A stretch of 64,000 nt of DNA, taken from the UHGV virus genome UHGV-0038496; one strand, 5' to 3'. Shown piece by piece: positions 22,093 to 63,833 of the stretch. The position numbers and the translations under genes are program-made. The first letter of the stretch is position 1. Each line of letters starts with the position of its first letter. The DNA is from a virus. The notes beneath the pieces were generated by a model. That model saw nothing but the letters and a program-made list of their open reading frames with translations, had not been told where the DNA came from and searched no databases.

Positions 22093-22906
22093 TGTCCAGA
22101 CAGTTCGCTACGCTGTCCCGGTGTGCTAAGACACCCGCCACACATTTCTGTGTGGAGCAGACTATATCTTCTCTGGATAACCAGAGCCAACCATTTCAGA
22201 GGCGCTTGCCTCTTACACCGCTACACTCATCACGGTTAGTCGTTGAGCACATAACTTATAAATCTTTCAGCAGTTTAGACCATGCTTTCTTAGTCTTGAT
22301 TCGAACAATTGCTGATCTGCAAGCACCAAATTCTTCCATCAAATCTGTTGTATTCTCAAACCGCCTGTTATAAATTTCGATAACCTCTTCTGCTGTGAGC
22401 TTATGATTGGCATTTGACTCACCAGAGGCATCATTCAGGCCATTTGCAAAAGCATGTTTCTGATTGCCAGATCGAGTAACATACTCCAGATTATCTTTAT
22501 GGTTGTTTGCTTTATTACCGTCCTTATGGTTAACTTCCATCCCAGGTTGTGGAGGTTCACCAAGGAAAGTAAGGGCAACTATTCTGTGAACAAGATACAA
22601 CACACATTTGCCGTTTACCCGAAAGTAAACGCGTTTGTAACCATTGTGTATTGTCTGCTCAGTCAACTGCTTCCGTGTGTTTCTTCTTGTAGAGAATATT
22701 GCACCGTCCTCTCTACAGAAGTACCCATCGTGACCAGGAACTGGTCGGATTTCTAAGTTACTTCGCTGCGGATTATCCATTGTTACATCCTCCAAACTTT
22801 TTACCATACCCCGAGTAGTTACTTCGGGCCATAAACATGTTACCACATTTATTTGGTATTTGGAAGGCTTTAGGAGCTTCCCGCAATTAGGTTGGTTTTA
22901 TAACAG
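22093..22906 (-). mobile_element. Group I intron in tape measure gene (approximate boundaries)
   Basis: About 810 nt between the two TMP exons; contains HNH ORF; 3' part carries AACGACTA...GATATAGTCTG...GGCGGGTGTCTTAGCACACC core shared with the terminase and nrdD introns. Confidence 0.6.
22256..22780 (-). CDS. Intron-encoded HNH homing endonuclease
   Basis: Start at MDNPQRS with GGAGG Shine-Dalgarno; motifs RIVALTFLG and VNHKDGNKANNHKDNLE. Confidence 0.8.
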   Translation of the reverse strand: MDNPQRSNLEIRPVPGHDGYFCREDGAIFSTRRNTRKQLTEQTIHNGYKRVYFRVNGKCVLYLVHRIVALTFLGEPPQPGMEVNHKDGNKANNHKDNLEYVTRSGNQKHAFANGLNDASGESNANHKLTAEEVIEIYNRRFENTTDLMEEFGACRSAIVRIKTKKAWSKLLKDL

Positions 22907-24142
22907 CTAGTATGTCAACTGTTGTTTTAGTTCCTCAGACATTACCTGTCCTTTACCAAGCATTTGCTGTATCGCCATAATACCACGCTGATATTTTACT
23001 TCATCAGCACCATATGACGCAGCATATTGCGAATAAGCAGAGAACAGATCACGGACTTCCTGCCCTGTCATTTGGTTTTTGGCGTTTACTGCCATTTGAG
23101 AGTAGCCTTGCAGACCTGATTTCAGGTCGAAGCCTAATCTCATAGCTTCACCTTGTACGAATGCAACTTCCGAGTTAGCTTTCGTAGGATCACCCATAAC
23201 GTTGGTAAGAGCAGCACTCGCACCTTCCATCATGTGACCGGATTTGTTAACACTGACAATTGCAGAGAATGCGGTGTACGCTTTAGTCAAATCCATGACT
23301 GTTGTTCTTAATTTATTAAAAGCGGTGCTCAGAGTCATGGTTCCAGCAGCAGCATTAGCAAACCCCTTCTGCATTGCAGCGATCTGGGCGTTGAAAGTTG
23401 ACTTACCTATCAACCCTTTTGCATATTGCTGTTCAACCTGACGGTAGCCACCTAACATATCCCTAAAATTAGCCCCATAACGAGCTGTCAGACGCGTTGA
23501 CATGTTGGTAAGGTGTGTTAGCCTATCCATACCCACATTATTGCGTTTGGGCGTTCCTGAGCTGCCATTTTGCTTGTGCCATCTGTTCATTGCAGCAGTC
23601 TGGGCACGAACAAGTGCTGGGTTGGAAGCTACACCACCCATGTTGGGGTTACCTGGGATATATCTGAAGGTATTTGCTCTGGACAGAGCACGGGGTGAGA
23701 CTGGTTTGTTGGAGAAGTAGGAACTACCTAAGCCACCACTTTTCTTAGCCAGTTTGGATTGTTCCTGATAGAATTTACGCATTCTCACCAATTCAGGATC
23801 TTTGGCAGTCATCTGACCGACAACCTGTTTCCTTCTGGCGTTCTCACGTTTTTCTATCGCAGATCGTACAGCAGCTTCACGTTTAGCCTGGGATACAGCT
23901 TCCTGATGCATACGGCGTTGCTGTTGCAACTGTTTATTCTGTACCCTCTGAACAATCTGACCAGTCTTCTCCATCGATGCTTGCCAGGCTTTCAGAGGAT
24001 TCCCCTTTCCCAAAGAATCGCCCAGCTTTGTAAACTCCCTGCCTAATCCTTTAATTCTTTCAATAGCTTTTTTATAGCTATTGTTATCGATCTCAAATGT
24101 AATTCGGTTTGTGGTTGTGGCAACCACTTTGTTACCAGCCAT
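22907..24142 (-). CDS. Tail tape measure protein, 5' exon
   Basis: 411 aa; TMP-like composition (Ala/Gln-rich, GYSQMAVNA core); ORF ends where intron core begins. Confidence 0.7.
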   Translation of the reverse strand: MAGNKVVATTTNRITFEIDNNSYKKAIERIKGLGREFTKLGDSLGKGNPLKAWQASMEKTGQIVQRVQNKQLQQQRRMHQEAVSQAKREAAVRSAIEKRENARRKQVVGQMTAKDPELVRMRKFYQEQSKLAKKSGGLGSSYFSNKPVSPRALSRANTFRYIPGNPNMGGVASNPALVRAQTAAMNRWHKQNGSSGTPKRNNVGMDRLTHLTNMSTRLTARYGANFRDMLGGYRQVEQQYAKGLIGKSTFNAQIAAMQKGFANAAAGTMTLSTAFNKLRTTVMDLTKAYTAFSAIVSVNKSGHMMEGASAALTNVMGDPTKANSEVAFVQGEAMRLGFDLKSGLQGYSQMAVNAKNQMTGQEVRDLFSAYSQYAASYGADEVKYQRGIMAIQQMLGKGQVMSEELKQQLTY

Positions 24143-24200
24143 ATTCTCTCCTGGTTAGTAATAAAAAAGGGCCGGATCCTTTCGGAACCAGCCCTTTGCT

Positions 24201-24446
24201 TTAACGTCTACGTTTCGCTTTTGCCTGGGCTATCCTGGCTTCTTGCTCTCTCTCAAACTCTTTGTTTTGAACACCGTCAAGGAACTCTTCTATGTCAAGA
24301 TACTCACACAACATCAAGAAGTAGTCCATGTCGGCGCTGTTGAGAGATTCATAGTTCTCACCACGAAACCCTTTCAACACTTTACACCACAGGAAATCGA
24401 ACCAGCTAAGTGAGCTATGCTTCCTTGCCCACTCGCTGGCCTGCAA
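24201..24446 (-). CDS. Putative tail assembly chaperone (distal ORF)
   Basis: 81 aa between tube and TMP; its reading frame stays open upstream into the preceding ORF. Confidence 0.35.
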   Translation of the reverse strand: MQASEWARKHSSLSWFDFLWCKVLKGFRGENYESLNSADMDYFLMLCEYLDIEEFLDGVQNKEFEREQEARIAQAKAKRRR

Positions 24447-24457
24447 TACGACTTTGC

Positions 24458-24922
24458 TTATTCCTGAGTTTCCTGGTCCAGACTGTTGATCTGATGCGCC
24501 ATTTGCAATCCCTGCAACATCGCCATCAGGCCGTCTAAACCTTCTTGCGTGAAAAAAGATCCGTAGTTAACCTCCAGCACTTTACCAGCCAGTTTGAGCA
24601 TTGCAAACAGGTTGCCAGCGAAGAGTGCATCTATGTCTACTTTATCCACGCCATCAACGACAACATCTGCGAACAGGATATCGAACAGTTCGTCAATCGA
24701 TTTATCGTCAAGTTGTTCGAATAAGTACACCAGTGCGGTTGGTAACACTTCTGCGAGGTTTTTACCACCGTTCAACAATTCACCACCAATGGCTCCCATC
24801 GGCACTGCAATAATCCTGCCAATTTTAGGAAGGTTATGCATTGCCTGGCGTGGTCCCCAGTGATTTATAATGAAGTTGTGTCCGACTAAATCTATTTCTG
24901 TAGTAGGTCTGAAGTTTGGCAT
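24458..24922 (-). CDS. Putative tail assembly chaperone
   Basis: 154 aa acidic protein in the canonical position between tail tube and tape measure. Confidence 0.4.
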   Translation of the reverse strand: MPNFRPTTEIDLVGHNFIINHWGPRQAMHNLPKIGRIIAVPMGAIGGELLNGGKNLAEVLPTALVYLFEQLDDKSIDELFDILFADVVVDGVDKVDIDALFAGNLFAMLKLAGKVLEVNYGSFFTQEGLDGLMAMLQGLQMAHQINSLDQETQE

Positions 24923-25024
24923 TTCTCGTTACCCTTAAAGTTAGTTGTCATGCGTTATCGCATAGATTTATTATAGCATTGTACTCACTTTTTGTCAATG
25001 CAAACAGAAAGCCTCCGAAGAGGC

Positions 25025-26563: not shown

Positions 26564-26628
26564 CGAAAAACTCCTAGTAGTTTTAAACACAGGGGAACTA
26601 TACCACAAAACATTAGCTTTTGTCAAAC

Positions 26629-26662
26629 CCTATAAACAAGAAAGGCCACCCGAAGGTGGCCT
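26629..26662 (-). terminator. Rho-independent terminator after tail tube gene (minus strand)
   Basis: AGGCCACC-TTCG-GGTGGCCT hairpin followed by T-rich tract on minus strand. Confidence 0.5.
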
Positions 26663-26668
26663 GTAACA

Positions 26669-27142
26669 TTAAATGATACCAGTTAAACCTGCAAGTCCCA
26701 TCATTGCAGATTCAATGTTATCTTTGTTCAACCAGCAATCCAGTACGCCGATTTCCCAGTCCAGTTGTGCAACTTCTGTACCGTAGGTCAGGTCAGGTTG
26801 CTTCTGGATCCAACCGATTGTGGAAATACCAGGACCCTGGCTACCTTCCAGCAGAACAGGGAAGAATACAAGCCCTGTGATAGATGCTTGTTTCTGCCAG
26901 TCTGACAGGTAGGCGTTCCATGCTGCTGTGTTCTGGAGAGATACAGTCATTACACCAGATTGGTTACGGGATAATGCTGCACTCATTTCACCATCCACGC
27001 CTACATGCGGGTAGATGTTATCTTCGTTACGAGAGACAACGATTTTGGTGTCTGCCGCAAAACCTGATACACGCTGACCCATCAAATAAAGTTTTACTTT
27101 TTTCGGGTCATATGCATAGGGTGTTAAAATATCTGTGACCAT
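26669..27142 (-). CDS. Tail tube protein (putative)
   Basis: 157 aa directly downstream of sheath-sized gene; terminator after it. Confidence 0.55.
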   Translation of the reverse strand: MVTDILTPYAYDPKKVKLYLMGQRVSGFAADTKIVVSRNEDNIYPHVGVDGEMSAALSRNQSGVMTVSLQNTAAWNAYLSDWQKQASITGLVFFPVLLEGSQGPGISTIGWIQKQPDLTYGTEVAQLDWEIGVLDCWLNKDNIESAMMGLAGLTGII

Positions 27143-27153
27143 TTACCCTCCTG

Positions 27154-28539: not shown

Positions 28540-28611
28540 TTGTTTCCTCTTCAATATCTTGTGCACAGGATATTAACAAGCAGCATAATCATTACGCTGC
28601 ATGGAGAACGA

Positions 28612-29597: not shown

Positions 29598-29607
29598 TCA
29601 ACCTCCA

Positions 29608-37216: not shown

Positions 37217-38002
37217 TTAAATCATCCTCTTATACATAGAGGGTGAAACAATCTTCGGAATAACACATGGCATCGCAACTTCCTCTTTTTCAAGGTAGTT
37301 GATTGCAGAAGCAATGGAGTCGGCCCAGTCATCTTTACGGCTAAAGGTTGACCGTTCGCCGTTGAATTTCTCCAGCTCTGTCAAAAATGCTTCCAGTGTA
37401 TCAGGGTCGAAACTTGACCTGACAAGCCGAACCATACCCTGTTGGGCAAGGTTGGCAAACGGTGAGAAACGGGTGAGTTTTGATTTGTTAGACGGCATTG
37501 GGTCTTCTTCCACCCTGAAACCTCCAGCAAGGAGTTTGCGGGATGAAGTAAGAAACTCACTCTTACCTGCCTGACCGGGGTCCACAGAGAAGACAATCAC
37601 ACAATCTTCACCATCAAACTCTGCCTGTTTCCTGATAATAACATCGCGTTCACCAGCTTTCTTGCAGAACTTACCGCTCAAGCCTGTGGAATACCTGCCA
37701 TCATCTACGTTTTCAGGACAATAGTCACCAGAGATGTAGTAGTAACCATCGCTATCCTTGCTGACTTTGATACTGGCTGTATAGTCGGGGAATTTGTTGC
37801 CAGAGGTACGTTCTGTACCAGCTTTATCCCACGCTCTTACAGAAACTGCTCCTAGGGGGACATGATCCGCATCTTTCAAGAATGTGCGACTGAAATAGTT
37901 TGCGCCTTCCGGTTTAGCGAACCAGTTACCATAGAGAAGTTGTGCTTTTTCCAGTTCTGGCAGACCTTCTAGGAATGCAAGATATTCTGGGTTATCACGC
38001 AA
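37217..38002 (-). CDS. Terminase large subunit, 3' exon (nuclease domain)
   Basis: 261 aa beginning LRDNPEYL; upstream frame closed by TGA a few codons earlier, so this is not a complete gene; intron core immediately upstream. Confidence 0.75.
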   Translation of the reverse strand: MRDNPEYLAFLEGLPELEKAQLLYGNWFAKPEGANYFSRTFLKDADHVPLGAVSVRAWDKAGTERTSGNKFPDYTASIKVSKDSDGYYYISGDYCPENVDDGRYSTGLSGKFCKKAGERDVIIRKQAEFDGEDCVIVFSVDPGQAGKSEFLTSSRKLLAGGFRVEEDPMPSNKSKLTRFSPFANLAQQGMVRLVRSSFDPDTLEAFLTELEKFNGERSTFSRKDDWADSIASAINYLEKEEVAMPCVIPKIVSPSMYKRMI

Positions 38003-39009
38003 GCAGATAGGGTTATCGTGTCCTGGTGTTCAGGGCCGGACGCAACTCCGACCCCCGTTGGTTCCATCCACCGCATCCATGCTCGGCTGCATGTTACCAT
38101 GCAGAGCAGACTATATCACGATCCTGTTTCTCACAGGACCCTTCGCTTTTCGAGCACCATCAGCTTGTGCCCTACTCCCTTTCGGGATAGTCGTTGAACT
38201 ACAATTACCAATCATAATTGTTTGAAATGTAAGTATAAGTTTTCCTTTCCTTGATACTTTTCACTGTACGGTGAGAAACCCCCCACAATCTTGCCACCGC
38301 ACCAACGGATAAGCCTTTTTGTAAATCTTCGCAGATACCAATCACCTTGTGCTCACTTATTCTGTTAGCTGAAGGTATTTCCCTAAAGTGAAACTCCGCA
38401 GAGATATCTGGGTATACTGATCCATTCTTTATACCACTTACAAGGGTTTGATTGACACCGAACATCTGACAGATATCTTTTACCCTTGCACCTTGCTCTA
38501 ATAGCCTGCATATTTCAAGGGCAGTGGCATCATCCAAATACCTGTATTTATTTACATAATCTTTTTTAAGTCCAGTTTCATGGGCGTGGTGTGTGTTTTC
38601 CTCTGGGGTTGTCCACTCAAGGTTCCATGCGGCGTTATTCAACTTATTACCGTCCAAGTGATTTACTTGGGTTTTCACGCTAGGATTATCATTATCAACA
38701 AAAACCTCAGCAACAACTCTGTGAACAAGCACTTGGAACTTTTTGCCGTCCTCACACAGGGAAACCACAGCATAGCCTGTCTTTTTATGCGTAACAGGTT
38801 GAAGGAATTTATTAGAATACAAACTATAAATTCTGCCATCATATGTCACGCAATAGTGTGGGTAACCTAAAAATCCTAAATTCTTCATTTCAAACACTCC
38901 CTACTACAGTTTCGGAAGAATAATTATAGCTGCTGATTATCTGAAAGTCAATCAGATTTTCCAGCAATTAACGAAGTTATTCGACGTGCATTACTGCACG
39001 AAGCCACTA
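38003..39009 (-). mobile_element. Group I intron C in terminase gene, carrying HNH ORF (approximate boundaries)
   Basis: 3' part (38003-38204) contains AACGACTATCC...GATATAGTCTGCTCTGCATGGTAACATGCAGCCGAGCATGGATGCGGTGGATGGAACCAACGGGGGT, about 50/51 nt identical to nrdD intron 2. Confidence 0.6.
38205..38897 (-). CDS. Intron-encoded HNH homing endonuclease (NUMOD-like N-terminus)
   Basis: 230 aa; QVLVHRVVAEVFV, VNHLDGNKLNNAAWNLEW HNH motif; C-terminal helix-turn-helix-like region. Confidence 0.8.
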   Translation of the reverse strand: MFEMKNLGFLGYPHYCVTYDGRIYSLYSNKFLQPVTHKKTGYAVVSLCEDGKKFQVLVHRVVAEVFVDNDNPSVKTQVNHLDGNKLNNAAWNLEWTTPEENTHHAHETGLKKDYVNKYRYLDDATALEICRLLEQGARVKDICQMFGVNQTLVSGIKNGSVYPDISAEFHFREIPSANRISEHKVIGICEDLQKGLSVGAVARLWGVSHRTVKSIKERKTYTYISNNYDW

Positions 39010-39327
39010 CAGATTAATGGTTGCACCAATAAAGGCGATAGAGAGGGGTTTTGGAACTATCTCAACACCTTTACCGTTAACATACGTGTACTTCTCGATC
39101 AACTCTTCTGGCGTATCGCCGAAGATAAATTCCCCATCCCTACGGATGAAATAACGCTTAACGCCACACTTACTTTCATCGGGGTAGCCTTCGTCATCAA
39201 GCCACCAACGAACAAGTTTGGCTAAATAATGTTCAGAATCGGGGTTACAGCTGATCACCATTCGCGAAGAGTATTTTGATTTCGACCTCATACGGGAAAT
39301 CAGGTAGTCGATTTGCTCCCATTCGAA
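39010..39327 (-). CDS. Terminase large subunit, internal exon (approximate boundaries)
   Basis: Frame FEWEQIDYLISRMRSKSKYSSRMVISCNPDSEHY...IVPKPLSIAFIGATI; ISCNP resembles ATPase motif III; ends just before a DNP-type motif that continues in the 3' exon. Confidence 0.55.
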
Positions 39328-39684
39328 CTGAGTCGTTTGTGTTCAGGCAAGGTCGCTAATCTTGCCCCGCCACCATGTGGCAGCTGCATGTCTCCATGCA
39401 GACCAGACTATATCTTATAAGCGGTAACAACCGCCTATCCTCCCGTTTCGGCAGTCTTAAAAGACTGTGGGTTTCCCCAGCCGCTTGGCCCTAACGCCCG
39501 TAAGCGATAGTCGTTGAGCACACATCCTATCAGGATGCTTCGCTGCGGATTATCTAAATCAACACACTATTACCATACCTTCGGTCTTTCTCCAAAGCCA
39601 ATATTATGTTACCATAATAGATTGGTGGTGTCAATAGTAAAGATTTCCCCGCAATTAGGGAGGTTTTACGAGAGCTACCAACTA
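39328..39684 (-). mobile_element. Group I intron B in terminase gene, ORF-less (approximate boundaries)
   Basis: Contains CAACGACTATCG...GATATAGTCTGGTCTGCATGGAGACATGCAGCTGCC...CCTGAACAC core elements (minus-strand sense). Confidence 0.5.
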
Positions 39685-39735
39685 ACCCTCGTCAAAGCAT
39701 ATTAAAGTATATTCCACTTTTGTCCCGCCGGATCG
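39685..39735 (-). CDS. Terminase large subunit mini-exon encoding Walker B motif (approximate boundaries)
   Basis: Minus-strand frame ...TKVEYTLICFDEG then TAG; LICFDE fits the hhhhDE Walker B consensus at the expected distance (about 100 aa) after the Walker A in the 5' exon. Confidence 0.5.
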
Positions 39736-39975
39736 CTACTCCGACGCGGTGTGCTAAGACACCCGCCACATATTACCATGTGGAACAGACTATCTCTTCC
39801 ATCCTTGGCGTGCCGTTTGGATCACCAATCGCTTGTGATTCTACTCCCCTACACTCATCGGGGATAGTCGTTACACTCGGTTTCAATTAATCCTTTAACC
39901 GTAGCTCGGTATTGTCCTTTTGTCAAGGAGTTTCACCGAATTAGGCACGAAGGGCAGGTTTGTTTACCCTTGATG
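39736..39975 (-). mobile_element. Group I intron A in terminase gene, ORF-less (approximate boundaries)
   Basis: Contains GTAACGACTATCCCC...GAGATAGTCTGTTCCACATGGTAATATGTGGCGGGTGTCTTAGCACACC core, paralogous to the tape measure intron. Confidence 0.45.
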
Positions 39976-41079
39976 ATTCAGCTTATCTTGGACGTATTCC
40001 ATGTGGCAGTACTTGATTACCGCACCATCCCTTTTCTTATTCCACTTACCTGTCTTTGCATCGTAATATGGAAAAGTAAACTTATGATCTTTCTCCCTAA
40101 ATTTTGGCCTCATATATTCAGGAAGATCCAGATACACACTTAGTGCTTTAGGCCACAGACCGCCTTCACCTTCCAGTTGTGGGGTTGTCCTACGGAACAT
40201 CACCACAGAGGTGTTTGGGTCATCTATCATCTTTAGTGGGAGAAGCTGCAAAAGAAAGGATTTACCACTGTTGCCTGTCACTGCAATGCAGTTTTCCAGT
40301 CTGGTGATAAAATAGCCTGTTGTGGTAGCAAAACAATATTTGTAACCATCTTCCGGCTCAAACTCTTCGAACGTTGCATCGTTATTAAGAGCAATCGTAC
40401 CTGCACGTTCGTTGGAGAACACAACTTTGTAACCCTTTTCGAAGAAGATCTGTGCATTGAATCCCAGAGATGATCCGAGGTATTGCAAGAAATCAGCCTG
40501 TTCTTTCGTTGGAACAACGTAGACATGCGAGTCATTACCGTTCAGGTAAATCTCATACCAGATCTGCAACAACTGGCGACGATCACAGTTATACCATTCA
40601 TCTGTGAATTTGTAATATCTTGCCTTTTCTTTCAGCTCTTCGTCAGAAATATCAAGGCCAGTACCACCCATGTTCACAAACGTGGTTTGCATACGCATTG
40701 CCAACTCATCGTTAGCATGTTGTTCGGCCACTTCACTGAAACAAAGTGTACCGTAATCTGTTCCGTCTTCTGGTACATACAGGACTGTGTGCTCGTCAGA
40801 CAATTCCTGACAAATACCATCCTGCACAACCCTGGTCAATTTATCGCATTCCAGCTTAACAAACTCTTCAGGCTGGATAAACATAGCCTTACCAGTTTCT
40901 TTATCAAACTGGAGGATATCTTGACCATCCCAGTCTGAGATTCTGATCCAACCGTTAGGTGTCATCACCTCATGTCGCATTGACAAACAACCCGCTGCCC
41001 CACCAATGATCAGGAAGTCGGCATCATTTTCCAGAATCATTTGTTGTTTACGGGAGCATGGGCCATACATTTTAGCCAT
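39964..41079 (-). CDS. Terminase large subunit, 5' exon (ATPase N-terminus with intein in P-loop)
   Basis: ORF as called (371 aa); extein sequence IIGGAAG / SGKSFLL reconstitutes Walker A GAAGSGKS once residues 31-270 are removed; the true 5' splice site lies somewhere before the in-frame stop at 39964. Confidence 0.75.
   Translation of the reverse strand: MAKMYGPCSRKQQMILENDADFLIIGGAAGCLSMRHEVMTPNGWIRISDWDGQDILQFDKETGKAMFIQPEEFVKLECDKLTRVVQDGICQELSDEHTVLYVPEDGTDYGTLCFSEVAEQHANDELAMRMQTTFVNMGGTGLDISDEELKEKARYYKFTDEWYNCDRRQLLQIWYEIYLNGNDSHVYVVPTKEQADFLQYLGSSLGFNAQIFFEKGYKVVFSNERAGTIALNNDATFEEFEPEDGYKYCFATTTGYFITRLENCIAVTGNSGKSFLLQLLPLKMIDDPNTSVVMFRRTTPQLEGEGGLWPKALSVYLDLPEYMRPKFREKDHKFTFPYYDAKTGKWNKKRDGAVIKYCHMEYVQDKLNHQG
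40270..40989 (-). mobile_element. Intein (mini-intein, about 240 aa) in terminase Walker A motif
   Basis: Begins CLSMRHEVMTPNGWIRISDW (intein block A pattern) and ends ...ENCIAVTGN followed by +1 Ser; flanking exteins form an intact P-loop. Confidence 0.7.
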
Positions 41080-42206: not shown

Positions 42207-42282
42207 TGGCACCCCGTACAGGACTCGAACCTGTAACCTATGGCTTAGAAGGCCACTGTTCTTCCATTTGAACTAACGGGGC
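42207..42282 (-). tRNA. tRNA-Arg (anticodon UCU), CCA encoded
   Basis: 76-nt cloverleaf on minus strand: acceptor GCCCCGT/ACGGGGT, D stem GTTC/GAAC, anticodon stem GTGGC/GCCAT with loop CTTCTAA, T arm ACAGG-TTCGAGT-CCTGT, discriminator G, 3' CCA. Confidence 0.85.
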
Positions 42283-45659: not shown

Positions 45660-46030
45660 ACTCCAGAATTATCTTTATAAATCCTAGGGTTAAGTGCTGA
45701 CAGATCAGATCAGATCAGGGATAGTAACTTCGTTAGCATTCCCTCTAACTCGTTACTATGTAGTACTAAGCTCGTACTCTCGCTTACTACCGTAAGCTCG
45801 GTACTCACTAAGTACTACCATAAGCAATGTCTTGCTTAATTAATTTATCAATTAATTTTATCAGTACAAAATCAATCAATAAATTAATTAATCAATCCAT
45901 TGATACCACTAAGTTCGTTCCTCACTAAGTGGTATACATGCTGATAGCATTCCCTCTATCAGATGATACTAAGTTCACACTTCGTATCCACTCGTGTTCA
46001 CTAAGTATCATTGATCCATTATTGCTCAAA
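45660..46030. repeat. AT-rich repeat field (candidate origin/regulatory region)
   Basis: Multiple CACTAAGT copies, duplicated AGCATTCCCTCTA (near 45725 and 45945), TTAATTAAT palindromes, DnaA-box-like GTATCCACT; no credible ORF. Confidence 0.4.
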
Positions 46031-56066: not shown

Positions 56067-56076
56067 GGAGTTGACA

Positions 56077-56688
56077 GTGATTTTACTTTCTGTTGACCAA
56101 TCACTAACACATTCGGCCTGCTGTATATGGCAGGATGGTGTTCCGGTGCACAAAGCCGTCTTTAAGACAGCAGATAGCTGTGCCAAAGAGGTGAAGAAGG
56201 GGGCTTATCAAGCCCATTTTACCGTTGAGCGTATACAGTGGTTATGCGAACAAATAGCTGCACTTGCTGAAGAGTGGAAAATAGACCACTTTGTGATGGA
56301 AGACTTACCTTTCAACCTTGCCCGTGGCAACGCTGGCAAGGATTTGGCAGGTCTGTTCTATGCTATTGAGCTTGCCATGTTGAAGACGCTCGGAGACATA
56401 TCGAAAATTCACACAGTGAACGTAACTGCCGCTAAGAAGCAGGCTCACAGCTTTTTACCACCAGAACTTGCCTTTTATGAAGAAATAAAGGTTGACAAAC
56501 GTTCCGGTAAGGAGCATACTATTACGAAGCAAGTGAAAATGGATAAGAAACTTATGATCGCCGCTGCTGAAAGTAAGTGGCCTGGGTTTCTTGACGGTAT
56601 GAACTTGACTATGGGCAAGGCTGACGTAGCGGATGCTTTGTGGATAGGCTATTGTTGGTGGGAGGGTATATCAGGAAGCGCAAGGTAA
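56077..56688 (+). CDS. RuvC-like Holliday junction resolvase (putative)
   Basis: GTG start 6 nt after TAAGGAG; LSVDQSLTHSA resembles the RuvC first acidic motif; about 200 aa. Confidence 0.5.
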   Translation: MILLSVDQSLTHSACCIWQDGVPVHKAVFKTADSCAKEVKKGAYQAHFTVERIQWLCEQIAALAEEWKIDHFVMEDLPFNLARGNAGKDLAGLFYAIELAMLKTLGDISKIHTVNVTAAKKQAHSFLPPELAFYEEIKVDKRSGKEHTITKQVKMDKKLMIAAAESKWPGFLDGMNLTMGKADVADALWIGYCWWEGISGSAR

Positions 56689-57221
56689 AAGCAAGGCGTA
56701 AGGCTGTGAAAGCCCCTGTGACGGGCAGGTGGTTGAAGGATTCGAAAGAAATTGCAGCTTTGCGTGAAGAAATGTCTGAGGAACAGGGTGGTCTGGATCC
56801 TGTACTTGGCGAGCCACTTCGCAAACCAGTACTCGACCATGACCATGCAGACGGACACTGTAGAGGTGTTTTATCACAGTGTGTGAATACCTGGGAGGGG
56901 TATATCACGAAATACTGGATGAAATACGTTGCAGAGTACACAGATTGCAGTCTATCAGAGGCGTTGCGCCGGATGGCTGACTATCTTGAAAATGACTACA
57001 GTGATCTCCCGTTCCACAAGAATTACAGAGATGATATGACTAAGTTCTTAAGGCGCTGTTCTAAGGCCACAATCATCGCCAGAGCGAAGAAAGACCTTAA
57101 TCTGGACATACCTGAGGACTTAACCAAACATGAAGCCATAGAGGCTTACATGAAGGAATTTATTAAGTATACAGAGGAGAGAGACTTTTATGTCGGAGAT
57201 CAGAGAGAAACCCGTGTTTAA
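56640..57221 (+). CDS. Endonuclease VII-like zinc-binding nuclease (putative)
   Basis: 193 aa; LDHDHADGHCRGVLSQCVN matches the Endonuclease_7 DHDH...C...C pattern; start uncertain (overlaps upstream gene). Confidence 0.45.
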   Translation: MDRLLLVGGYIRKRKVKARRKAVKAPVTGRWLKDSKEIAALREEMSEEQGGLDPVLGEPLRKPVLDHDHADGHCRGVLSQCVNTWEGYITKYWMKYVAEYTDCSLSEALRRMADYLENDYSDLPFHKNYRDDMTKFLRRCSKATIIARAKKDLNLDIPEDLTKHEAIEAYMKEFIKYTEERDFYVGDQRETRV

Positions 57222-57420: not shown

Positions 57421-57430
57421 GGATAACGAA

Positions 57431-58414
57431 ATGGCTGATTTAACAGTAGAAAAAATCGTAGAGCTTAAGACTCAGGGTTGGACCAATAGGCAGATAGCTC
57501 GTGAGTTATTAGGTAAAGAATCCCGTGAAAGCTGGGTTCGTCTACAACTGAAAAAAGCCCAGGCTAACTTCAATGAGATTGCTGGCGAAGCTGCTGAGCG
57601 TTTCATGGAAGAGAACCGTGGTGCTAAAATCTGGATTTACGATACAGAAACCTCTCCAACCTGTGGGTGGTTTTTCGGTCACTATAAAACAAACATCCAA
57701 CCTGCTGGTATTGAAATATTACCATACATGCTGACGTTTGCAGGTAAATGGCTGGACAGTCCTACTGTTGTAGACTGTGGTTTGCCAGACTACCCTATGT
57801 GGCAGCAGGATATACACAACGACCACGATTTGATTGAAGATTTGTGGTATTACATGGATGCTTGTGATATAGCTGTGGCCCATAACGCCCCATTTGACGA
57901 TGGCTGGGGCAATATGCGGTTCGCTTTTCACAACATGCCACCAGTATCGCCGTACAAAGAAGTGGATACTTTGAAGATGATCAAGAAAGCATTCCACTTG
58001 AACGCCAACACACTGGAATATGCTTGCAAGTACTTCCAGCTTGAGCGTCAGAAACTGATGGATCATACTTTCCAGATGTGGGTAGATTGCGTGCACGGTG
58101 ATTTGAATGCGTTTGCCAAAATGCGTGAGTACAACGTAGGTGATATTCTTTCTCTGGAAGGGTTATACCTGCTTGCACGTCCGTTTGCGAAACAGCATCC
58201 AAACCTGTCGCTGTATTATCAGGACGAAGAACCTGTTCTGCGTTGCCCACGCTGTGGTGGTGTACACTTGACCAAGCAAGATGGTGTTCATGCTTACACC
58301 CAGATAAGTAAGTTCGAAGTGTATCGTTGTGAAGATTGTGGTTCAGTTGCCCGTGATCGTCGCAACATCCGTTCACGCGAAGAAATGAAAGAAACGTTGA
58401 TTCAGATCATCTAA
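57431..58414 (+). CDS. Putative DEDD-type exonuclease with C-terminal zinc ribbon
   Basis: 327 aa; IWIYDTETSP (DxE), later HNAPFDDGW; C-terminal CPRCGG...CEDCGS. Confidence 0.4.
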   Translation: MADLTVEKIVELKTQGWTNRQIARELLGKESRESWVRLQLKKAQANFNEIAGEAAERFMEENRGAKIWIYDTETSPTCGWFFGHYKTNIQPAGIEILPYMLTFAGKWLDSPTVVDCGLPDYPMWQQDIHNDHDLIEDLWYYMDACDIAVAHNAPFDDGWGNMRFAFHNMPPVSPYKEVDTLKMIKKAFHLNANTLEYACKYFQLERQKLMDHTFQMWVDCVHGDLNAFAKMREYNVGDILSLEGLYLLARPFAKQHPNLSLYYQDEEPVLRCPRCGGVHLTKQDGVHAYTQISKFEVYRCEDCGSVARDRRNIRSREEMKETLIQII

Positions 58415-58452
58415 TAGAAGATGGAGGGGCTTAGGCCCCTCAGGAGCGGGTA

Positions 58453-58620
58453 ATGTTGAAAGCAAAATGCCTCAAAGAAGATGCCGATAAAACTTTGCAG
58501 ATCGGTTGTGTCTATTTGGTTGAGCAGGTCGGTTGTGATGTGCTGGTATATCTTCCCCACGGTATGAACAGATACCTCGGTATGTTTCCGGCATCATGGT
58601 TTGGAGTTGTTCAGCAGTAG
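58453..58620 (+). CDS. Hypothetical small protein (55 aa)
   Basis: ATG with Shine-Dalgarno-like AGGAG upstream; below ORF-track size cutoff. Confidence 0.3.
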   Translation: MLKAKCLKEDADKTLQIGCVYLVEQVGCDVLVYLPHGMNRYLGMFPASWFGVVQQ

Positions 58621-58629
58621 GAGATTGTT

Positions 58630-59259
58630 ATGGATGTGATTGTTTTGAATGCTCCGATGAAGTCAGGTAAAGACTACCTTGCAGATCTGCTGGTAGGTAT
58701 CATGGATCAGAATGGTATTCCTGCTGCTCATCGTGAAGTGAAAGAAATGTTGTTCTCTGTAGTAATCAAAGCTGCTGGGATTACCCCACAACTATGGGCT
58801 GCGATCTATGATCGCCATTATAAAGAGGAGCCTTGCCCCTATTTGATGATTGATGGCAAGCATGTTTCCCCACGGGAGTGGATGATCCACTGCTCTGAAG
58901 ATTTGATTAAGCCCCTATTTGGTAATCATGCCTTCGGGGACGCAGCGGTCAACTCTCTGAGAAAAGATTATCCTGAAGGTGATGGAGTAATCATCTATTC
59001 AGACGGTGGCTTCATAGAAGAGGTTGAGCGTATTTCTGAGTATGCTTACAGCACTGGCGGTGATTTCATGCTGGTCCGTGTGCACAGAAAAGGTTACGAT
59101 TGGGGTATTGACTCACGCTCATACCTGAATTTAGCCTTAAATAATGTGCGTGGATATGAAATGGATATTGACAACAAGGAGGGATGTGCGTTAGAATGTG
59201 CGGAAACGATAGCAGAAGTCTTCTTCGCAGTTAAAGAGGGGACACAATTCGAGGAGTAG
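58630..59259 (+). CDS. Deoxynucleoside monophosphate kinase (putative)
   Basis: 209 aa; N-terminal P-loop-like VLNAPMKSGKDYLADLL resembling phage dNMP kinases. Confidence 0.55.
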   Translation: MDVIVLNAPMKSGKDYLADLLVGIMDQNGIPAAHREVKEMLFSVVIKAAGITPQLWAAIYDRHYKEEPCPYLMIDGKHVSPREWMIHCSEDLIKPLFGNHAFGDAAVNSLRKDYPEGDGVIIYSDGGFIEEVERISEYAYSTGGDFMLVRVHRKGYDWGIDSRSYLNLALNNVRGYEMDIDNKEGCALECAETIAEVFFAVKEGTQFEE

Positions 59260-59263
59260 CAGT

Positions 59264-59866
59264 ATGTTAATAGGCGTTGATGTTGATCTCACACTTGTTC
59301 CTACAGATGGTGCATGGTGGAACTGGATGGAAGCAATGTACAGGGTGAATGGTGATTTCACTCTGCCAGAAGAGCCTCCTAAGAATGGCAGATTGTTCTA
59401 CGACCTTGGCAAATACTTCCCTGAGCCAGGTAAGCACATGCTGAAGCCTAAAGATTTCTGGGAAGATCCGTATTTGTATGATCGTCTTCGCCCGTATGGT
59501 CATGCAATGGATGTTCTTAAGAAATGGGTTAAACAAGGCCATCAGATTGCGTTTATCTCGATGTGCAACAAAGGTCATCAGGCTTCAAAAGTTCGCTTCT
59601 TGAAGCGTTGGACTCAGGATTTCATGGACTTGGATGATCACTCGCAAGGACACGGTTTCTATGCCACACATTTCAAAGGCAACATCAACTGTGATGTGAT
59701 GATAGACGACCGTAATGAGTTCCTTAACCAGTTTAATCCGGCTAAAACGATCCTGATTAAAATGAAAACTCCGTACGAACAGTATCATGAACTGACTAAC
59801 CCTGTTGACTGCTTGGCAGATGACTGGTATGATATTGAAGACTTCATGGACACTATTCTGGAGTAG
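59264..59866 (+). CDS. HAD-family 5'-deoxynucleotidase (putative)
   Basis: 200 aa; N-terminal GVDVDLT (DxDxT HAD motif I). Confidence 0.5.
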   Translation: MLIGVDVDLTLVPTDGAWWNWMEAMYRVNGDFTLPEEPPKNGRLFYDLGKYFPEPGKHMLKPKDFWEDPYLYDRLRPYGHAMDVLKKWVKQGHQIAFISMCNKGHQASKVRFLKRWTQDFMDLDDHSQGHGFYATHFKGNINCDVMIDDRNEFLNQFNPAKTILIKMKTPYEQYHELTNPVDCLADDWYDIEDFMDTILE

Positions 59867-59868
59867 TC

Positions 59869-60075
59869 ATGAGTCGGTGTGCTAAAGGTGGTGATCTTGT
59901 AGTGCATGAAGGTGACTGGCTGGAAGTGCGGGATAAGGACGGAAAGCTGGTCTTTGCCAACAGGATCAATCACGACATGTGTCAAGAAATGCTCAATCGC
60001 TACTTGGTGTTTAAAGCAGACATTGACATGACAAAAGATAAAGAGTATCATATCAGGGTAAGGAAATGCCAATAG
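59869..60075 (+). CDS. Hypothetical small protein
   Basis: 68 aa ORF. Confidence 0.35.
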   Translation: MSRCAKGGDLVVHEGDWLEVRDKDGKLVFANRINHDMCQEMLNRYLVFKADIDMTKDKEYHIRVRKCQ

Positions 60076-60181
60076 GCAAAACCTTACCCAGCGATAGATA
60101 ATTTGTAATTGATAAACCACAAGATATAGTGTAAAATAGAAGTTCGTCTCGCCCAAAAGACGGCTTCAAGGAGAGACAGAA

Positions 60182-60646
60182 ATGAGCGATATGATGACAC
60201 CTAAGAAAGTATTTATCTCTGTGACCCTTGATTTTCTGGCACAGTTGCCAGGTGTTAATCTTAAGACAAGAAACGGGCTACGAGCTGCACTCTATGCTGT
60301 AGGCTTTGACCTCAAGAACATAGATGTGATGAAAGGTAAGAACGTCCGTTGTAAAAACAAAACCACACATTATCGTAAAGCAGATATCTTTGCTGGTGCA
60401 ATGCGTAAAGATTTCCTGTATCCAGAAATTTATCATGGTGTGGATATTCTTGACGTAGAAGAAGTACCAGAAGATGCATTACTGGTTTCTGATCTGCCGT
60501 ACGATATTCCGGTTGAAGACCGCGTGAATGTTCGTAAGTACACAAAACGCCAGGACAAAGAGCAACAAATGTCTATAGGCGAAGATGAACCTTTCGACAT
60601 TGACGATTTCAAACGTCTGGAAAAATTGTTTGGACTTGAAGCATAA
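60182..60646 (+). CDS. Hypothetical protein upstream of nrdD
   Basis: 154 aa ORF, promoter-like TTGATA...TAAAAT upstream. Confidence 0.4.
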   Translation: MSDMMTPKKVFISVTLDFLAQLPGVNLKTRNGLRAALYAVGFDLKNIDVMKGKNVRCKNKTTHYRKADIFAGAMRKDFLYPEIYHGVDILDVEEVPEDALLVSDLPYDIPVEDRVNVRKYTKRQDKEQQMSIGEDEPFDIDDFKRLEKLFGLEA

Positions 60647-60659
60647 TACAGAGGGCAAA

Positions 60660-60905
60660 ATGAGTAAAAAATGGGAAGAAAGAGGTTTTGGTAGTCGTGC
60701 AGAATACGTCGGATGGTTGTGGTTTAATGGCCTCACTGATGACAACCGACTACGTGACGATGTTTATTTTGATGAATTTAAAGGAAAAGTCATCAATATA
60801 ATGGAAGAACTTGACAGACAAGAGCTGGAAGCTCAAATACGGGACGCCGATGTTGATATTGCCGAAAAAGAGTTTGGCATTGGTGATCCGAAAGATTATC
60901 AATGA
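60660..60905 (+). CDS. Hypothetical small protein
   Basis: Start at MSKKWEER with GAGGG Shine-Dalgarno; 81 aa. Confidence 0.35.
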   Translation: MSKKWEERGFGSRAEYVGWLWFNGLTDDNRLRDDVYFDEFKGKVINIMEELDRQELEAQIRDADVDIAEKEFGIGDPKDYQ

Positions 60906-60926
60906 TAAAATTAGAGGAGTTTTGCT

Positions 60927-61430
60927 GTGTTAAACGTAATCAAGAGAGATCTGACAACAGAACCTTTTGATGCTCGTAAAATAGTGGTAGCTGCACAAAA
61001 AGCCCTGGAGGCATCCGGGGCTGATGTGACAAGAGCATTTCATGCTGCACATTTTATTGCTGACGAGATTGTTTCTGAATTGGAGAGCTATGCTCAACAT
61101 GAAGAGGAGATAACAGTACCTGAAATCCACACAATGGTGGAAAACGCTTTGATGCGTTATGGTTATCTGGATGCTGCCCGTGCTTATATTGAGTACCGTA
61201 AAACCCGTGATAACAACCGTGAAGCTGCTGGTAAACTGCTGGCAGATGTTAATGGTTTCCTTGACCAATCCTGTGATGAATTCACTAAGGAGAATGCTAA
61301 CAAACCCACCAAGCATGTGCACACTCATCGTGATTTACTGGCCGGGATTCTAAGTAAGCACTTAGCTGTTACACAGATCCTACCGGAACATATTTCGAAG
61401 GCACATACTGATGGTTTTATACATGTCCAT
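60927..61430 (+). CDS. nrdD: Anaerobic ribonucleoside-triphosphate reductase NrdD, exon 1
   Basis: GTG start with GAGGAG Shine-Dalgarno; ATP-cone (VIKRDLTTEPFDARKI) then ENANKPTKHVHTHRDLLAGILSKH...GFIHVH, colinear with T4 NrdD up to the intron. Confidence 0.8.
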
Positions 61431-62392
61431 GAACAACATCGTGGCCTTACTGAGTGATCAGTATTGAATAACTCTGTTAACGCTAATTGCAAAGCGGTGT
61501 GCAGCGAAAAGCTGTGCTAACGGTTCAGAGGCAGGTGACTGCATTATGAGTAAGGGAGCCTAAACCCTTTGGACTAGGGGCAAGGTAATACCGTGCTAAG
61601 AATAGTGGCATCCTCTTAACTAGGAGGATGGTATGAATTTAGAATATGTTGATTGTGGGGATTACACAATCTATGAAGACGGTTATGTGGTTGACCATAT
61701 AGATGGCTATTGTGGTTGGGGGTACAGAAACGGTGGATACAGAGAAGCCTATGTTTACATAGGTGGAGAAAAGAGAAGAATGAAAGTTCACAGGTTAGTA
61801 GCTATGGCTTTTATTCCAAACCCTCTGAATTTGCCAGTTGTTAATCATCTGGATGGGAATAAGATGAACAACCACAGAGACAATCTTGAGTGGTGCACAC
61901 AAGGTCGTAACAATATACATGCAATTGAGACAGGATTAAGAAACGTCGCTGAATCGAACAGTAAGAGGTGGGATGACTCTGCATTCAGAGAAAGAACGGC
62001 TTCCAGAATAAGTGCGACACAAAAAGAACGCGGGACAACCGCTGGTAGGAATAATCCTCGTTTCAAGTATGAGATTGTTAAAGACGGAGATGTGTACACG
62101 GCTCCAGAGTTCTTCAATAAATTCAAAGATGTTTATGGTTTAAAACATTTGGAAAATCTGATAGGTAATTGTTGTGCATACCTCAAGCACAACTTGAAAA
62201 GAAAATTCTGGCTTAAAGTTGGAGCAGAGCCACGCTACGCCAAGAAAGAGTAAAACCTTCGGATGCCACTATTTATGTGTATCGACTATCCCGTAAGGGA
62301 GTAGGTGGGAGATGCTCCCCATCCAAAAGCAGAGGATCTCTAACTAGAGATCGTGATATAGTCATTGCCTACAGAAATGTAGGAGAATCAAG
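61431..62392 (+). mobile_element. Group I intron 1 in nrdD with HNH ORF
   Basis: 962 nt; 5' exon ends in U, intron ends in G; 3' part contains GATCGTGATATAGTC, identical to the start of the terminase intron C core; splicing restores HVH-DLDYIISPLTNCCLV. Confidence 0.65.
61633..62253 (+). CDS. Intron-encoded HNH homing endonuclease
   Basis: 206 aa; AGGAGG Shine-Dalgarno; HRLVAMAFIPNP and VNHLDGNKMNNHRDNLEW. Confidence 0.8.
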   Translation: MNLEYVDCGDYTIYEDGYVVDHIDGYCGWGYRNGGYREAYVYIGGEKRRMKVHRLVAMAFIPNPLNLPVVNHLDGNKMNNHRDNLEWCTQGRNNIHAIETGLRNVAESNSKRWDDSAFRERTASRISATQKERGTTAGRNNPRFKYEIVKDGDVYTAPEFFNKFKDVYGLKHLENLIGNCCAYLKHNLKRKFWLKVGAEPRYAKKE

Positions 62393-63055
62393 GATTTAGA
62401 TTACATAATTAGTCCATTAACGAACTGTTGTCTTGTAAATTATCCAGACATGCTGGAGCATGGATTTACAATAGGTAACGCAACCATAGGAACACCAAAT
62501 TCTATTAATGTAGCTGCAACAGTTCTTTCACAAATTTCAGCTGCTGTTTCTGGTGGGCAGTATGGTGGGCAGACGTACAGTCACATAGACCGCTACCTTG
62601 TCCCCTATGTAGAAAAAACACATAATAAAAACTTATCTTTCTGTAAAAAACACGGTTTGCCGGAAAGCGTTGCTGATGAAATGACAGAGAAAGATGTATA
62701 TGATAGTATGCAATGTTTTCTCTATCAAATCAACACCTTAACCAGCACCAACGGGCAAACTCCGTTTTTGACTATCAGTTTAGGTCTTGATACTTCTAAA
62801 TTTGGGAGGATGATCACTAAAAACTATCTTATGGTTCATAAAGGTGGCATTGGTGAAGACCATATAACCCCAGTATTCCCTAAAGTCTTGTTCTTCCTTG
62901 AAGAAGGGGTGAACATGAACCCAGGTGACCCAAATTACGATTTGAAACGCCTGGCTTTGGAATGCTCAGCAGAGCGAATTTACCCAGACTTCGTTTCTGT
63001 GCCTTTGAACAGAAAAGTGACAGGATCTACTGCTGGCGATGTTACAAGCATGGGT
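62393..63055 (+). CDS. nrdD: NrdD, exon 2
   Basis: 221 codons in frame; TNCCLV...GFTIGNATIGTPNSINVAA...QYGGQTYSH...NGQTPFLTISLG...DPNYDLKRLALECSAERIYPD colinear with T4 NrdD. Confidence 0.8.
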
Positions 63056-63833
63056 AAACTACTATTGCTCATGTAAAACCTATCTAAACGGGGGAACTCT
63101 CTACGGAGAAAATCCCGTGCTAAACGTAACAGAACTCCCGGAGAAAAGGAGTCCTGAAATGAGAAAACAAATTCGTGATTTTGAAGGGTATGAAATTGAC
63201 GAGATGGGAAATGTTTATTGCACCCGCTACGAAAAGGAAAGAATCATCCATCCGTGGGAAGAAATAAACACAGGCTACCTTCTTGTCAGGATACGCAAGA
63301 ACAAGAAAACTGTTTGCCTGAGGGTTCACAGACTTGTTGCTGAAGCGTTTTTACCGAATCCAGACAATTTGCCCTATGTTAAGCATAAGGGTGACAACAA
63401 GAAAGATAACAGCGTATACAATCTTGAGTGGGGTGCTTGCCCAGATAATACCCAGGAAGGTTACGACAACAACTGTTATACTTTTTACACAAGGTGTCAC
63501 GGTGTGAAAGCTACCAACAAACTGACTGGTGAAGTTTTCCACTTTAAGAGTCTGAGATGCTGTGCTGATACTTTAGGGGTGGATAGAAAAAGAATATCTG
63601 CTATCCTGAAGCGTGGAGCACCTAATAACTATGATTACGAGTTCTGTTACGAAATGCCGAACGACTAACCGTGATGAATGTAGCGGTGTAGGGTGCAAGC
63701 CTATGGCACTCCAAAAGATAGGCACACGAAAGTGTGAAGATATAGTCTGATCTGCATGGTGACATGCAGCCGAGCATGGATGCGGTGGATGGAACCAACG
63801 GGGGTAGTGTTGCGAGCTACTCTGAACACAATG
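63056..63833 (+). mobile_element. Group I intron 2 in nrdD with HNH ORF
   Basis: 778 nt; splicing joins ...VTSMG to CRSFLSKYN (T4 NrdD has SPMGCRSFLS at this point); 3' core about 50/51 nt identical to terminase intron C. Confidence 0.65.
63159..63668 (+). CDS. Intron-encoded HNH homing endonuclease
   Basis: 169 aa; AAGGAG Shine-Dalgarno; HRLVAEAFLPNP and VKHKGDNKKDNSVYNLEW. Confidence 0.8.
   Translation: MRKQIRDFEGYEIDEMGNVYCTRYEKERIIHPWEEINTGYLLVRIRKNKKTVCLRVHRLVAEAFLPNPDNLPYVKHKGDNKKDNSVYNLEWGACPDNTQEGYDNNCYTFYTRCHGVKATNKLTGEVFHFKSLRCCADTLGVDRKRISAILKRGAPNNYDYEFCYEMPND

Follow-up and report, generated by a model that had tools for sequence, protein, structure and literature searches.

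Results

Six predicted introns interrupt three genes of an rV5-like phage

The stretch of DNA examined here, 64,000 nucleotides of the virus genome UHGV-0038496 (the window), is from a Vequintavirinae (rV5-like) myovirus in which three genes are interrupted by six predicted group I introns. The gene for the large terminase subunit (TerL) contains three of them, which we call terA, terB and terC, the gene for the tape-measure protein (TMP) contains one, and nrdD contains two, nrdD1 and nrdD2. They occur on both strands and each is in the sense orientation of its host gene. At the nucleotide level the region is ~76-79% identical to Escherichia phage rV5 and other Vequintavirus genomes, and among deposited phages we found none nearer. 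Nearer relatives, with 87-93% identity, are viral contigs of IMG/VR sample 3300045988 and one contig from an ENA metagenome; six such close relatives were compared with the window. A preliminary description of this DNA had called the three genes essential. There are indeed three genes, but the adjective is loose since nrdD of T4 is dispensable in aerobic growth.

Intron borders were placed by tblastn with the uninterrupted TerL of KB57, tape-measure protein of rV5 and NrdD of Murica, together with the rule that the 5' exon ends in U and the intron in G. Joining the exons in silico gave single open reading frames (ORFs) collinear with these three proteins. On the minus strand, TMP exon 1 (22918..24142; supported by tblastn, Pfam and the spliced ORF) ends at T22918 and is followed by an intron of 829 nt (22917..22089) that ends at G22089 and by exon 2 (20980..22088; tblastn and spliced ORF check), with the junction ...ELKQQL / AEAMPGAY in the alignment to rV5. 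TerL is also on the minus strand, and its residues are given in KB57 numbering. Exon 1 (39966..41079) matches residues 1-30 and 25-131 and includes a probable intein of 234 aa (40288..40989). It is followed by terA (39965..39717; 249 nt) at residue 131/132, a micro-exon of 32 nt (tggaatatactttaatatgctttgacgagggt; 39685..39716), terB (39684..39334; 351 nt) at residue 142/143, exon 3 (39017..39333; residues 144-224 and spliced ORF check), terC (39016..38022; 995 nt) at residue 241/242, and exon 4 (37217..38021), which is 71% identical to residues 242-507. The micro-exon is part of L-EYTLICFDEG and matches LQYTFVGFDEG at residues 132-142. On the plus strand, nrdD exon 1 (60927..61430) encodes a Pfam ATP-cone domain and the start of the NRDD domain and matches Murica NrdD residues 1-165. 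It is followed by nrdD1 (61431..62392; 962 nt) at residue 164/165, exon 2 (62393..63055; 78% identity to Murica NrdD), nrdD2 (63056..63833; 778 nt) at residue 387/388 between SMG and CRS, and the start of exon 3 (63834..64000; residues 388-442), which continues beyond the end of the window.

Each interruption contains a group I core

An Rfam search at E <= 1 found five of the six introns. This was too insensitive, so we built a family-specific covariance model from an alignment of 21 sequences taken from the window, its relatives, T4 and unrelated viral contigs. With the Rfam model RF00028, terB scored 80.3 bits, above the gathering score of 50. Lower values were obtained for terA (44.7 bits, below threshold), nrdD2 (34 bits), the TMP intron (24.8 bits, below threshold) and terC (two split matches of 28.6 and 21.9 bits), and nrdD1 had no Rfam match at E <= 1. 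Large ORF insertions depress scores of this kind. The custom model gave 82.6 bits for the TMP intron, 80.6 for terC, 77.4 for nrdD2, 70.7 for terA and 54.7 for nrdD1, the most divergent of the six.

Helix-by-helix verification showed that P1, P3, P4, P6, P7, P7.1, P7.2, P3', P8, P7' and P9 are complementary and in canonical order in all six introns. P2, P5, P9.1 and P9.2 could be assigned in some introns only; the strands from P1 through P9.2 are complementary in the TMP intron, and nrdD1 has neither P9.1 nor P9.2. The P7 strands follow (C)GACUA(U/A) ... (A)UAGUC in every case, and a scan for complementary P7-pair motifs returned exactly six, each sense to its host gene. P1 forms 4-8 base pairs ending in a U.G wobble at the 5' splice site in each intron. 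With the borders fixed independently by homologue alignment, every 5' exon ends in U and every intron in G. The P10 pairing of terA is weak on inspection by eye. Minimum free energy folding of terA and terB was not used because it gave non-canonical pairings, the P3/P7 pseudoknot being beyond what such folding can represent.

Across the 21-member alignment, P7, P7.1 and P9 were 95.5% paired, with compensatory (double) changes in 10 of 15 pairs. In none of 500 shuffles did the paired percentage, the count of compensatory cells or the covariation score come up to the observed value, and pairing fell to 29-44% in slid controls. These features predict that all six are group I introns of subgroup IA2, the subgroup of the T4 td intron. 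We base the subgroup on the P7.1/P7.2 insertion and on the likeness of their sequences to the td and nrdD introns of T4; nrdD2 is td-like and nrdD1 is best described as IA2-like. Folding thus yields a group I core in all six, in agreement with the preliminary description, which had already placed six putative introns in three genes on both strands.

Non-splicing gene splits exist in phages, as discussed in PMC7344957, and the interruptions could in principle be free-standing endonuclease insertions that divide genes into separately translated pieces, as in Aeh1 nrdA/mobE. That most of the six score below the Rfam threshold fits such an explanation. However, all of the interruptions have a complete group I core, end in G and form the U.G pair at their 5' splice site, two of them contain no ORF at all, and the 32-nt micro-exon is untranslatable alone. 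In addition, the TerL intron of the related phage CB7 (Vequintavirinae) splices in reverse transcription PCR (RT-PCR; PMC7344957). We therefore regard gene splitting as extremely unlikely. As group I introns, the six would each be transcribed within the host mRNA and then excised by two-step, guanosine-initiated transesterification, with the 5' splice site marked by the U.G wobble of P1 and the 3' splice site by the terminal G. Excision would restore the TerL, tape-measure and NrdD reading frames.

Four introns encode HNH endonucleases

The TMP intron, terC, nrdD1 and nrdD2 contain ORFs with a Pfam HNH_3 domain, all in P6 loops, and terA and terB are ORF-less. The TMP ORF (22256..22780, minus strand; HNH_3 E = 2.3e-13) likely starts at the ATG at 22780 after GGAGGA, upstream of or overlapping P4', with the P6 strands at intron positions 157 and 660. 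The terC ORF (38205..38888, minus strand) also has a helix-turn-helix domain (HNH_3 E = 1.8e-6, HTH_23 E = 3.1e-8). The nrdD1 ORF lies at 61633..62253 on the plus strand (HNH_3 E = 2.1e-8). The nrdD2 ORF (63159..63668, plus strand) is I-HmuI-like (HNH_3 and I-HmuI_NUMOD-like matches); it passes through P6' and has its stop codon within the 5' strand of P7 (GACTAA). By tblastn the HNH proteins are ~30-44% identical to one another over their cores.

The preliminary description had also proposed that two copies lost their endonuclease ORF. This is plausible for terB, because relatives carry an endonuclease VII (EndoVII)-type ORF at the same site, one of them truncated. In two rV5-like contigs (L047 and L048) the terB-site intron has an EndoVII-type ORF of 196 aa in P8 whose 3' end overlaps P7', the terB of ENA contig ERZ1026772 NODE-16 (L075) has a truncated, 143-aa version in P8, and terB in the window has a clean P8 hairpin. 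Loss of the terB ORF would fit the degeneration phase of the homing cycle. For terA, only ORF-less versions were found among those seen.

Two further endonuclease ORFs were observed elsewhere in the window. One of 193 aa (56640-57221, plus strand) has a recombination endonuclease VII domain and belongs to the same enzyme family as the P8 ORF of the terB-site introns in relatives. The other (17903-18568, minus strand) is a free-standing HNH_3 and AP2-domain endonuclease ORF of 221 aa located between tail/baseplate genes, with no ribozyme core near it.

Occupancy of the intron sites varies among close relatives

Among the relatives with 87-93% identity, occupancy differs at every site, and each intron is precisely present or absent independently of the others. 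The window has all six introns. UViG_159287 contains the TMP intron and lacks all three TerL introns; UViG_140627 contains terB and lacks the TMP intron, terA and terC; and UViG_133607 contains the TMP intron, terA and terC, lacks terB, and has an nrdD intron near residue 546. UViG_157310 contains the TMP intron, lacks terA, terB and terC, and has a TerL intron at 472/473. L075 contains terA and the terB with the truncated ORF, and lacks terC. This polymorphism of the insertions indicates mobility between genomes.

Four of the sites (terA, terB, terC and nrdD2) are also filled in more distant phages. The TMP intron, absent in rV5 as in UViG_140627, is present in three close relatives, and as a whole it has no homologue among deposited phages. 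The terA intron is found in Escherichia phage TH18 and three related records as well as in L075, and is 97% identical to the terA of UViG_133607. The terB site, exactly empty in UViG_133607 and UViG_159287, is filled in rV5; the terC site is filled in rV5, PDX, UViG_133607 and TH18; and the nrdD2 site (SMG/CRS) is filled in phi92, A147 and several viral contigs. The nrdD1 site was empty in every relative examined, and deposited phages yielded no homologous intron. In the three closest relatives nrdD is uninterrupted at both window sites. The nrdD of UViG_157310 (L034, IMGVR_UViG_3300045988_157310, 1800-6292) is interrupted near residues 198, 222/223, 287/288, 387/388 and ~546-555, and thus has at least five interruptions, exceeding nrdD of the window.

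The micro-exon between terA and terB is contiguous with its neighbor exons in relatives without terA or without terB. An intron pair around this 32-nt exon was found only in the window and in L075, a relative with ~90-92% identity to the window, where terA, the same 32-nt micro-exon and terB lie at 7896-8760.

Several introns are more conserved than the exons around them. Between the window and UViG_157310 the TMP introns have 97.6% identity and the exons on either side 89-92%. Measured against A147, nrdD2 has 84-91% identity in its 5' core, HNH gene and catalytic core (91% in the homing endonuclease gene region), compared with 73-78% in the adjoining exons. For terC the overall identity is 82% to rV5 versus 78% to the closest relative, and exon 4 shows the opposite pattern, with 73% and 90%, respectively. 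The precise presence/absence polymorphism and this higher conservation of introns than of flanking exons are indirect evidence of HNH-driven homing. The four I-HmuI-like HNH enzymes would drive homing into intron-less alleles of related phages in mixed infection, and for terA and terB, which have no ORF, movement would depend on ordinary recombination or on co-conversion with neighboring elements.

The nrdD exons beside nrdD2 are mosaic. In the interval 62906-64000 the exon sequence flanking nrdD2 is 75-78% identical to the closest relatives, compared with 90-95% further upstream, and exon 2 matches a different relative at 91% over its final 150 nt. Such a pattern is consistent with co-conversion during homing but is not proof of it.

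A separate observation concerns the terB junction (39685/39333). The terB-less allele of L016 (2377-2392) reads GAC GAG GGG ACC and the spliced window sequence reads GAC GAG GGT/ACT. These synonymous differences coincide exactly with the insertion site, the U that P1 requires among them, and could reflect co-conversion or target-site resistance.

Blocks of near-identical sequence are shared between pairs of introns

Two strings had been singled out in the preliminary description as evidence that the introns share long near-identical segments, and both are present in the sense orientation of the host genes. The first, CTGCATGGTRACATGCAGCCGAGCATGGATGCGGTGGATGGAACCAACGGGGGT, is 54 nt long and occurs in terC (38051-38104, minus strand) and nrdD2 (63752-63805, plus strand) with 53 of 54 positions identical, differing at the R position alone; none is expected in shuffles. 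Its nrdD2 position had been given correctly and its minus-strand coordinates were ~10 nt off. The second, GGCGGGTGTCTTAGCACACC, is a 20-mer of the P9.1 hairpin and is exact in the TMP intron (22120-22139, minus strand) and terA (39748-39767, minus strand), with none expected by chance.

Self-BLAST of the window found five blocks: nrdD2 with terC (63739-63829 and 38026-38117; 89% over 92 nt), terA with the TMP intron (39721-39799 and 22093-22171; 82% over 79 nt), nrdD2 with the TMP intron (63660-63700 and 22204-22244; 90% over 41 nt), nrdD2 with terB (63737-63770 and 39383-39416; 94% over 34 nt), and terB with terC (39383-39414 and 38086-38117; 91% over 32 nt). No block at this level joins nrdD1 to any other intron. 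The blocks are therefore real but pairwise, rather than common to all six as had been claimed. Outside them, in permissive global alignment with free end gaps, the cores without their ORFs match pairwise at 0.57-0.73, compared with 0.62 +/- 0.03 for shuffled controls; identity of this kind is uninformative by itself, and we use it only as evidence against recent duplication. Pairwise alignment of the six introns thus gives short blocks at 82-94% identity and elsewhere nothing better than shuffles.

The blocks are what would be expected if one intron had recently multiplied to six sites in this genome, with two copies then losing the endonuclease gene, as the preliminary description proposed. 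Exact or near-exact stretches of 20-54 nt between introns of different genes, and the placement of all six in one structural subgroup, are in line with that history. The remaining evidence opposes it. The ribozymes match only at the level of shuffled controls outside the blocks, P1, P2, P3, P8 and P7.2 differ from intron to intron, and the HNH proteins have diverged to the identities given above. The terB-site endonuclease of relatives is of another family and in another loop, and rV5, phi92, A147 and TH18 have matching introns at sites that are filled in the window. Moreover, the shared strings recur far outside this genome: GATATAGTCTGNTCTGCATGGTGACATGCAGC, part of the terC/nrdD2 identity, also occurs in phiKZ-like phages and in the td and nrdD introns of T4, and exact copies of GGCGGGTGTCTTAGCACACC are present at 16 loci in diverse viral contigs, frequently two to a contig and amid divergent sequence. 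We take GGCGGGTGTCTTAGCACACC and GATATAGTCTGNTCTGCATGGTGACATGCAGC, judged by this distribution, to be family-level modules rather than marks of recent copying. Recent multiplication within the genome is thus largely refuted and very improbable as an account of the six introns.

Peripheral modules have moved between introns

The recombination among intron copies that the preliminary description also suggested was borne out by comparison with relatives. In the window the P9.1 module of terC (38052..38085, minus strand), CCGAGCATGGATGCGGTGGATGGAACCAACGGGG, is identical at 34 of 34 positions to that of nrdD2 (63771..63804, plus strand) and at 32 of 34 to that of the ORF-less nrdD387 intron of UViG_163358. 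Compared with its closest orthologue, the terC of UViG_133607, the window terC is nearly the same in the 5' core (110/119), P6'-P7' (93/100), P9 (17/19) and P9.2 to the 3' end (28/30), and P9.1 matches at 12/34. The terC of UViG_133607 has a terB-type P9 loop (GGAGAC) and a terB-like P9.1 (CTGCC...GGCGGGG). In rV5 the P9.1 of terC is AGCACGTAAAGGTGCGG, which is identical in the A147 nrdD387 intron; the phi92 nrdD387 intron has the one-base variant AGCACGTAATGGTGCGG, and terC of PDX and UViG_173923 has one-base variants of AGCACGTAAAGGTGCGG. Thus terC is found with three alternative P9.1 modules, each matching another intron type of the same phage group, a pattern that a simple vertical history cannot produce.

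A similar replacement is seen in the TMP intron. Those of UViG_133607 and UViG_159287 are 98-100% identical to the window in the RNA segments outside the HNH ORF, except in the P7.2-P8 block, and their HNH ORF is ~96% identical. Their P7.2 is identical to that of the window terB at ~41 of 42 positions. As for nrdD2, its tail (P9.1, P9.2 and the 3' end) matches the ORF-less nrdD intron of UViG_163358 (32/34 and 28/29), and nrdD2 is therefore itself a chimera, in which the body resembles A147 and the tail UViG_163358. When viral contigs were scanned for exact copies of the window-type P9.1 with its flank, there were 0 matches; the UViG_163358 allele, found by a protein-anchored search, differs by 2 nt. 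The terC P9.1 was most likely copied from nrdD2 in the lineage of the window, which would make the terC module a gene-conversion patch and that of nrdD2 its probable donor.

Purifying or convergent selection on functional RNA modules might produce shared blocks with no exchange of sequence, and the family-wide recurrence of GATATAGTCTGNTCTGCATGGTGACATGCAGC in T4 and phiKZ-like phages and of GGCGGGTGTCTTAGCACACC in 16 loci with divergent flanks is the kind of conservation that this predicts. Yet the terC/nrdD2 identity of 34/34 includes loop and linker bases, whereas same-site introns elsewhere match at 12/34-16/34. Selection would also have to account for three P9.1 types in terC, each matching a different co-occurring intron type, and for a nearly identical P7.2 transplanted into an otherwise 98-100% identical TMP intron. 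We consider selection alone unlikely.

The terC/nrdD2 identity could also be an assembly or polishing artefact from a collapsed repeat, since the close relatives are from metagenome assemblies and exact repeats of ~54 nt can confuse assemblers. However, the patch is internal: the terC flanks return to the terC type upstream (93/100) and downstream (28/30), on into TerL exon 4, so that an artefact would need two crossovers within ~35 nt. Similar swaps are seen in independently assembled genomes and in the cultured phages rV5 and PDX. We give this explanation next to no credence.

Two sources would then account for the shared blocks, family-wide conservation of the core and peripheral modules and, from time to time, gene conversion between co-resident introns that is seeded on the core and swaps P9.1 and P7.2. 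The swap breakpoints adjoin strongly conserved elements, namely the P9 hairpin and P7.1 with GTAG, which fits homologous recombination seeded on the shared core. It is probable that co-resident introns in different genes swap P9.1, the P9 loop and P7.2 by such core-seeded gene conversion and so evolve partly in concert, with at least three swaps among six relatives in addition to the chimeric nrdD intron and the pair around the 32-nt exon.

A putative intein in TerL and other features of the window

TerL exon 1 contains an in-frame insertion of 234 aa (40288-40989, minus strand) that splits the Walker A/P-loop motif precisely (GGAAG/CLS...AVTGN/SGKS). It is probably an intein, although its penultimate residue is Gly and not the usual His, and it had no sequence match in Pfam or PDB. 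All close relatives and Av-05 have the insertion, as apparently does TH18 with its longer exon 1; rV5 and KB57 lack it.

Upstream of the terminase region there is a single tRNA gene (42210-42282, minus strand; Rfam 68 bits) where rV5 has a cluster of six. A 78-nt imperfect palindrome (45825-45902; 77% self-complementary) lies in the zone where gene orientation and GC skew switch from minus-strand structural genes to plus-strand early/metabolic genes. By ORF inspection the genes upstream of nrdD (57431-60900) look different from the rV5-like order, in which nrdA, nrdB and a glutaredoxin gene precede nrdD. A direct repeat of 134 nt (10825-10958 and 11344-11477; 75% identity) within an ORF of 1635 aa (8319..13226) is probably an internal repeat of a tail-fibre-like protein.

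Discussion

We hold with good confidence that the window contains six distinct group I introns of subgroup IA2 that represent old, site-specific lineages, and that the blocks they share are conserved modules together with occasional exchange between introns. Several points weigh against this interpretation. The gathering score of RF00028 (50) was reached by terB alone, with four introns below it and nrdD1 undetected. Run with filters off, the custom covariance model gave six matches in the window at 50-83 bits, with the next best at 15 bits, but five of the six window cores were used to train it, making these scores partly circular, and the scan therefore mainly shows the absence of a seventh copy. 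In nrdD1 the region from P3 to P4 is ambiguous in its assignment. The case for splicing and homing activity is drawn from structure and from published relatives (rV5, PMC3606486; CB7, by RT-PCR, PMC7344957). The direction of copying from nrdD2 to terC depends on parsimony over a handful of genomes, and the exchange could have occurred between co-infecting genomes rather than within one genome.

The closest parallel for the terminase gene is rV5, where two introns have been described (Kropinski et al. 2013, PMC3606486; GenBank DQ832317, in which TerL is a three-piece join). These correspond to terB and terC, which are at the same codon positions with ~80-82% sequence identity; terC has the same type of HNH ORF and terB is ORF-less in both. 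Unlike rV5, the window has the third intron, terA, 32 nt upstream of terB, the probable Walker A intein, and a different P9.1 in terC.

The IA2 introns of T4 in td, nrdD (sunY) and nrdB share with those of the window the P7.1/P7.2 elements between P7 and P3', the P9 hairpin CUGCAUGGUGACAUGCAG and a P9.2 with an (A/G)CGA-type loop, and over 102 nt the cores of nrdD2 and the T4 nrdD intron have 77% identity. The insertion sites differ, however, being near residue 273 in T4 nrdD and at 164/165 and 387/388 in the window, as do the endonucleases. The T4 nrdD intron encodes I-TevII, a GIY-YIG enzyme, downstream of P9, whereas the window enzymes are HNH proteins encoded in P6. Recombination between T4 introns is said to shuffle their domains, as shown experimentally by Bryk and Belfort in Nature in 1990. 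At the SMG/CRS site, phi92 and A147 contain an nrdD intron at the same position as nrdD2 that, in A147, corresponds to its 5' core, HNH gene and catalytic core; the phi92 record (NC_023693) annotates its intron as a 'spliced variant'. The tail of the window nrdD2 is unlike these and of the UViG_163358 type.

Multi-intron phage genomes are known, among them Staphylococcus phage Twort and SPO1-like phages with I-HmuI. In Pectobacterium phage CB7 (Vequintavirinae), HNH-bearing introns of TerL, DNA polymerase and nrdA/nrdB are spliced, as determined by RT-PCR (PMC7344957). CB7 resembles the window in that TerL and genes of nucleotide metabolism contain several group I introns with HNH ORFs, together with inteins and free-standing HNH genes, but TerL of CB7 has a single intron and its nrdD and tape-measure genes have none, so that host genes and sites differ. 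Tape-measure genes of Bacillus cereus-group prophages also contain group I introns (Tourasse and Kolsto 2008, PMC2504315), and others are known from mycobacteriophages, where they lie in capsid and tail genes (PMC3706429). The former likewise interrupt a phage tape-measure gene, but they are in Gram-positive siphovirus prophages at positions unrelated to that of the window. In the collections searched, the predicted nrdD1 intron and its site, the TMP intron as a whole, and the intron pair around the 32-nt exon are without described counterpart.

These results replace a recent burst of one intron with six old, site-specific IA2 introns that have been gained and lost independently among close phages and have occasionally traded small modules. 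If the intein is real, RNA splicing at three places and a single protein splicing step would be needed to produce TerL. Genomes of this phage group should be annotated with spliced TerL, tape-measure and nrdD genes; left unspliced, the three genes break up into 11 fragment ORFs, to which the HNH ORFs are added. The relatives of this phage form a compact natural collection in which homing cycles, the loss of endonuclease genes and the shuffling of domains from one intron to another can be studied.

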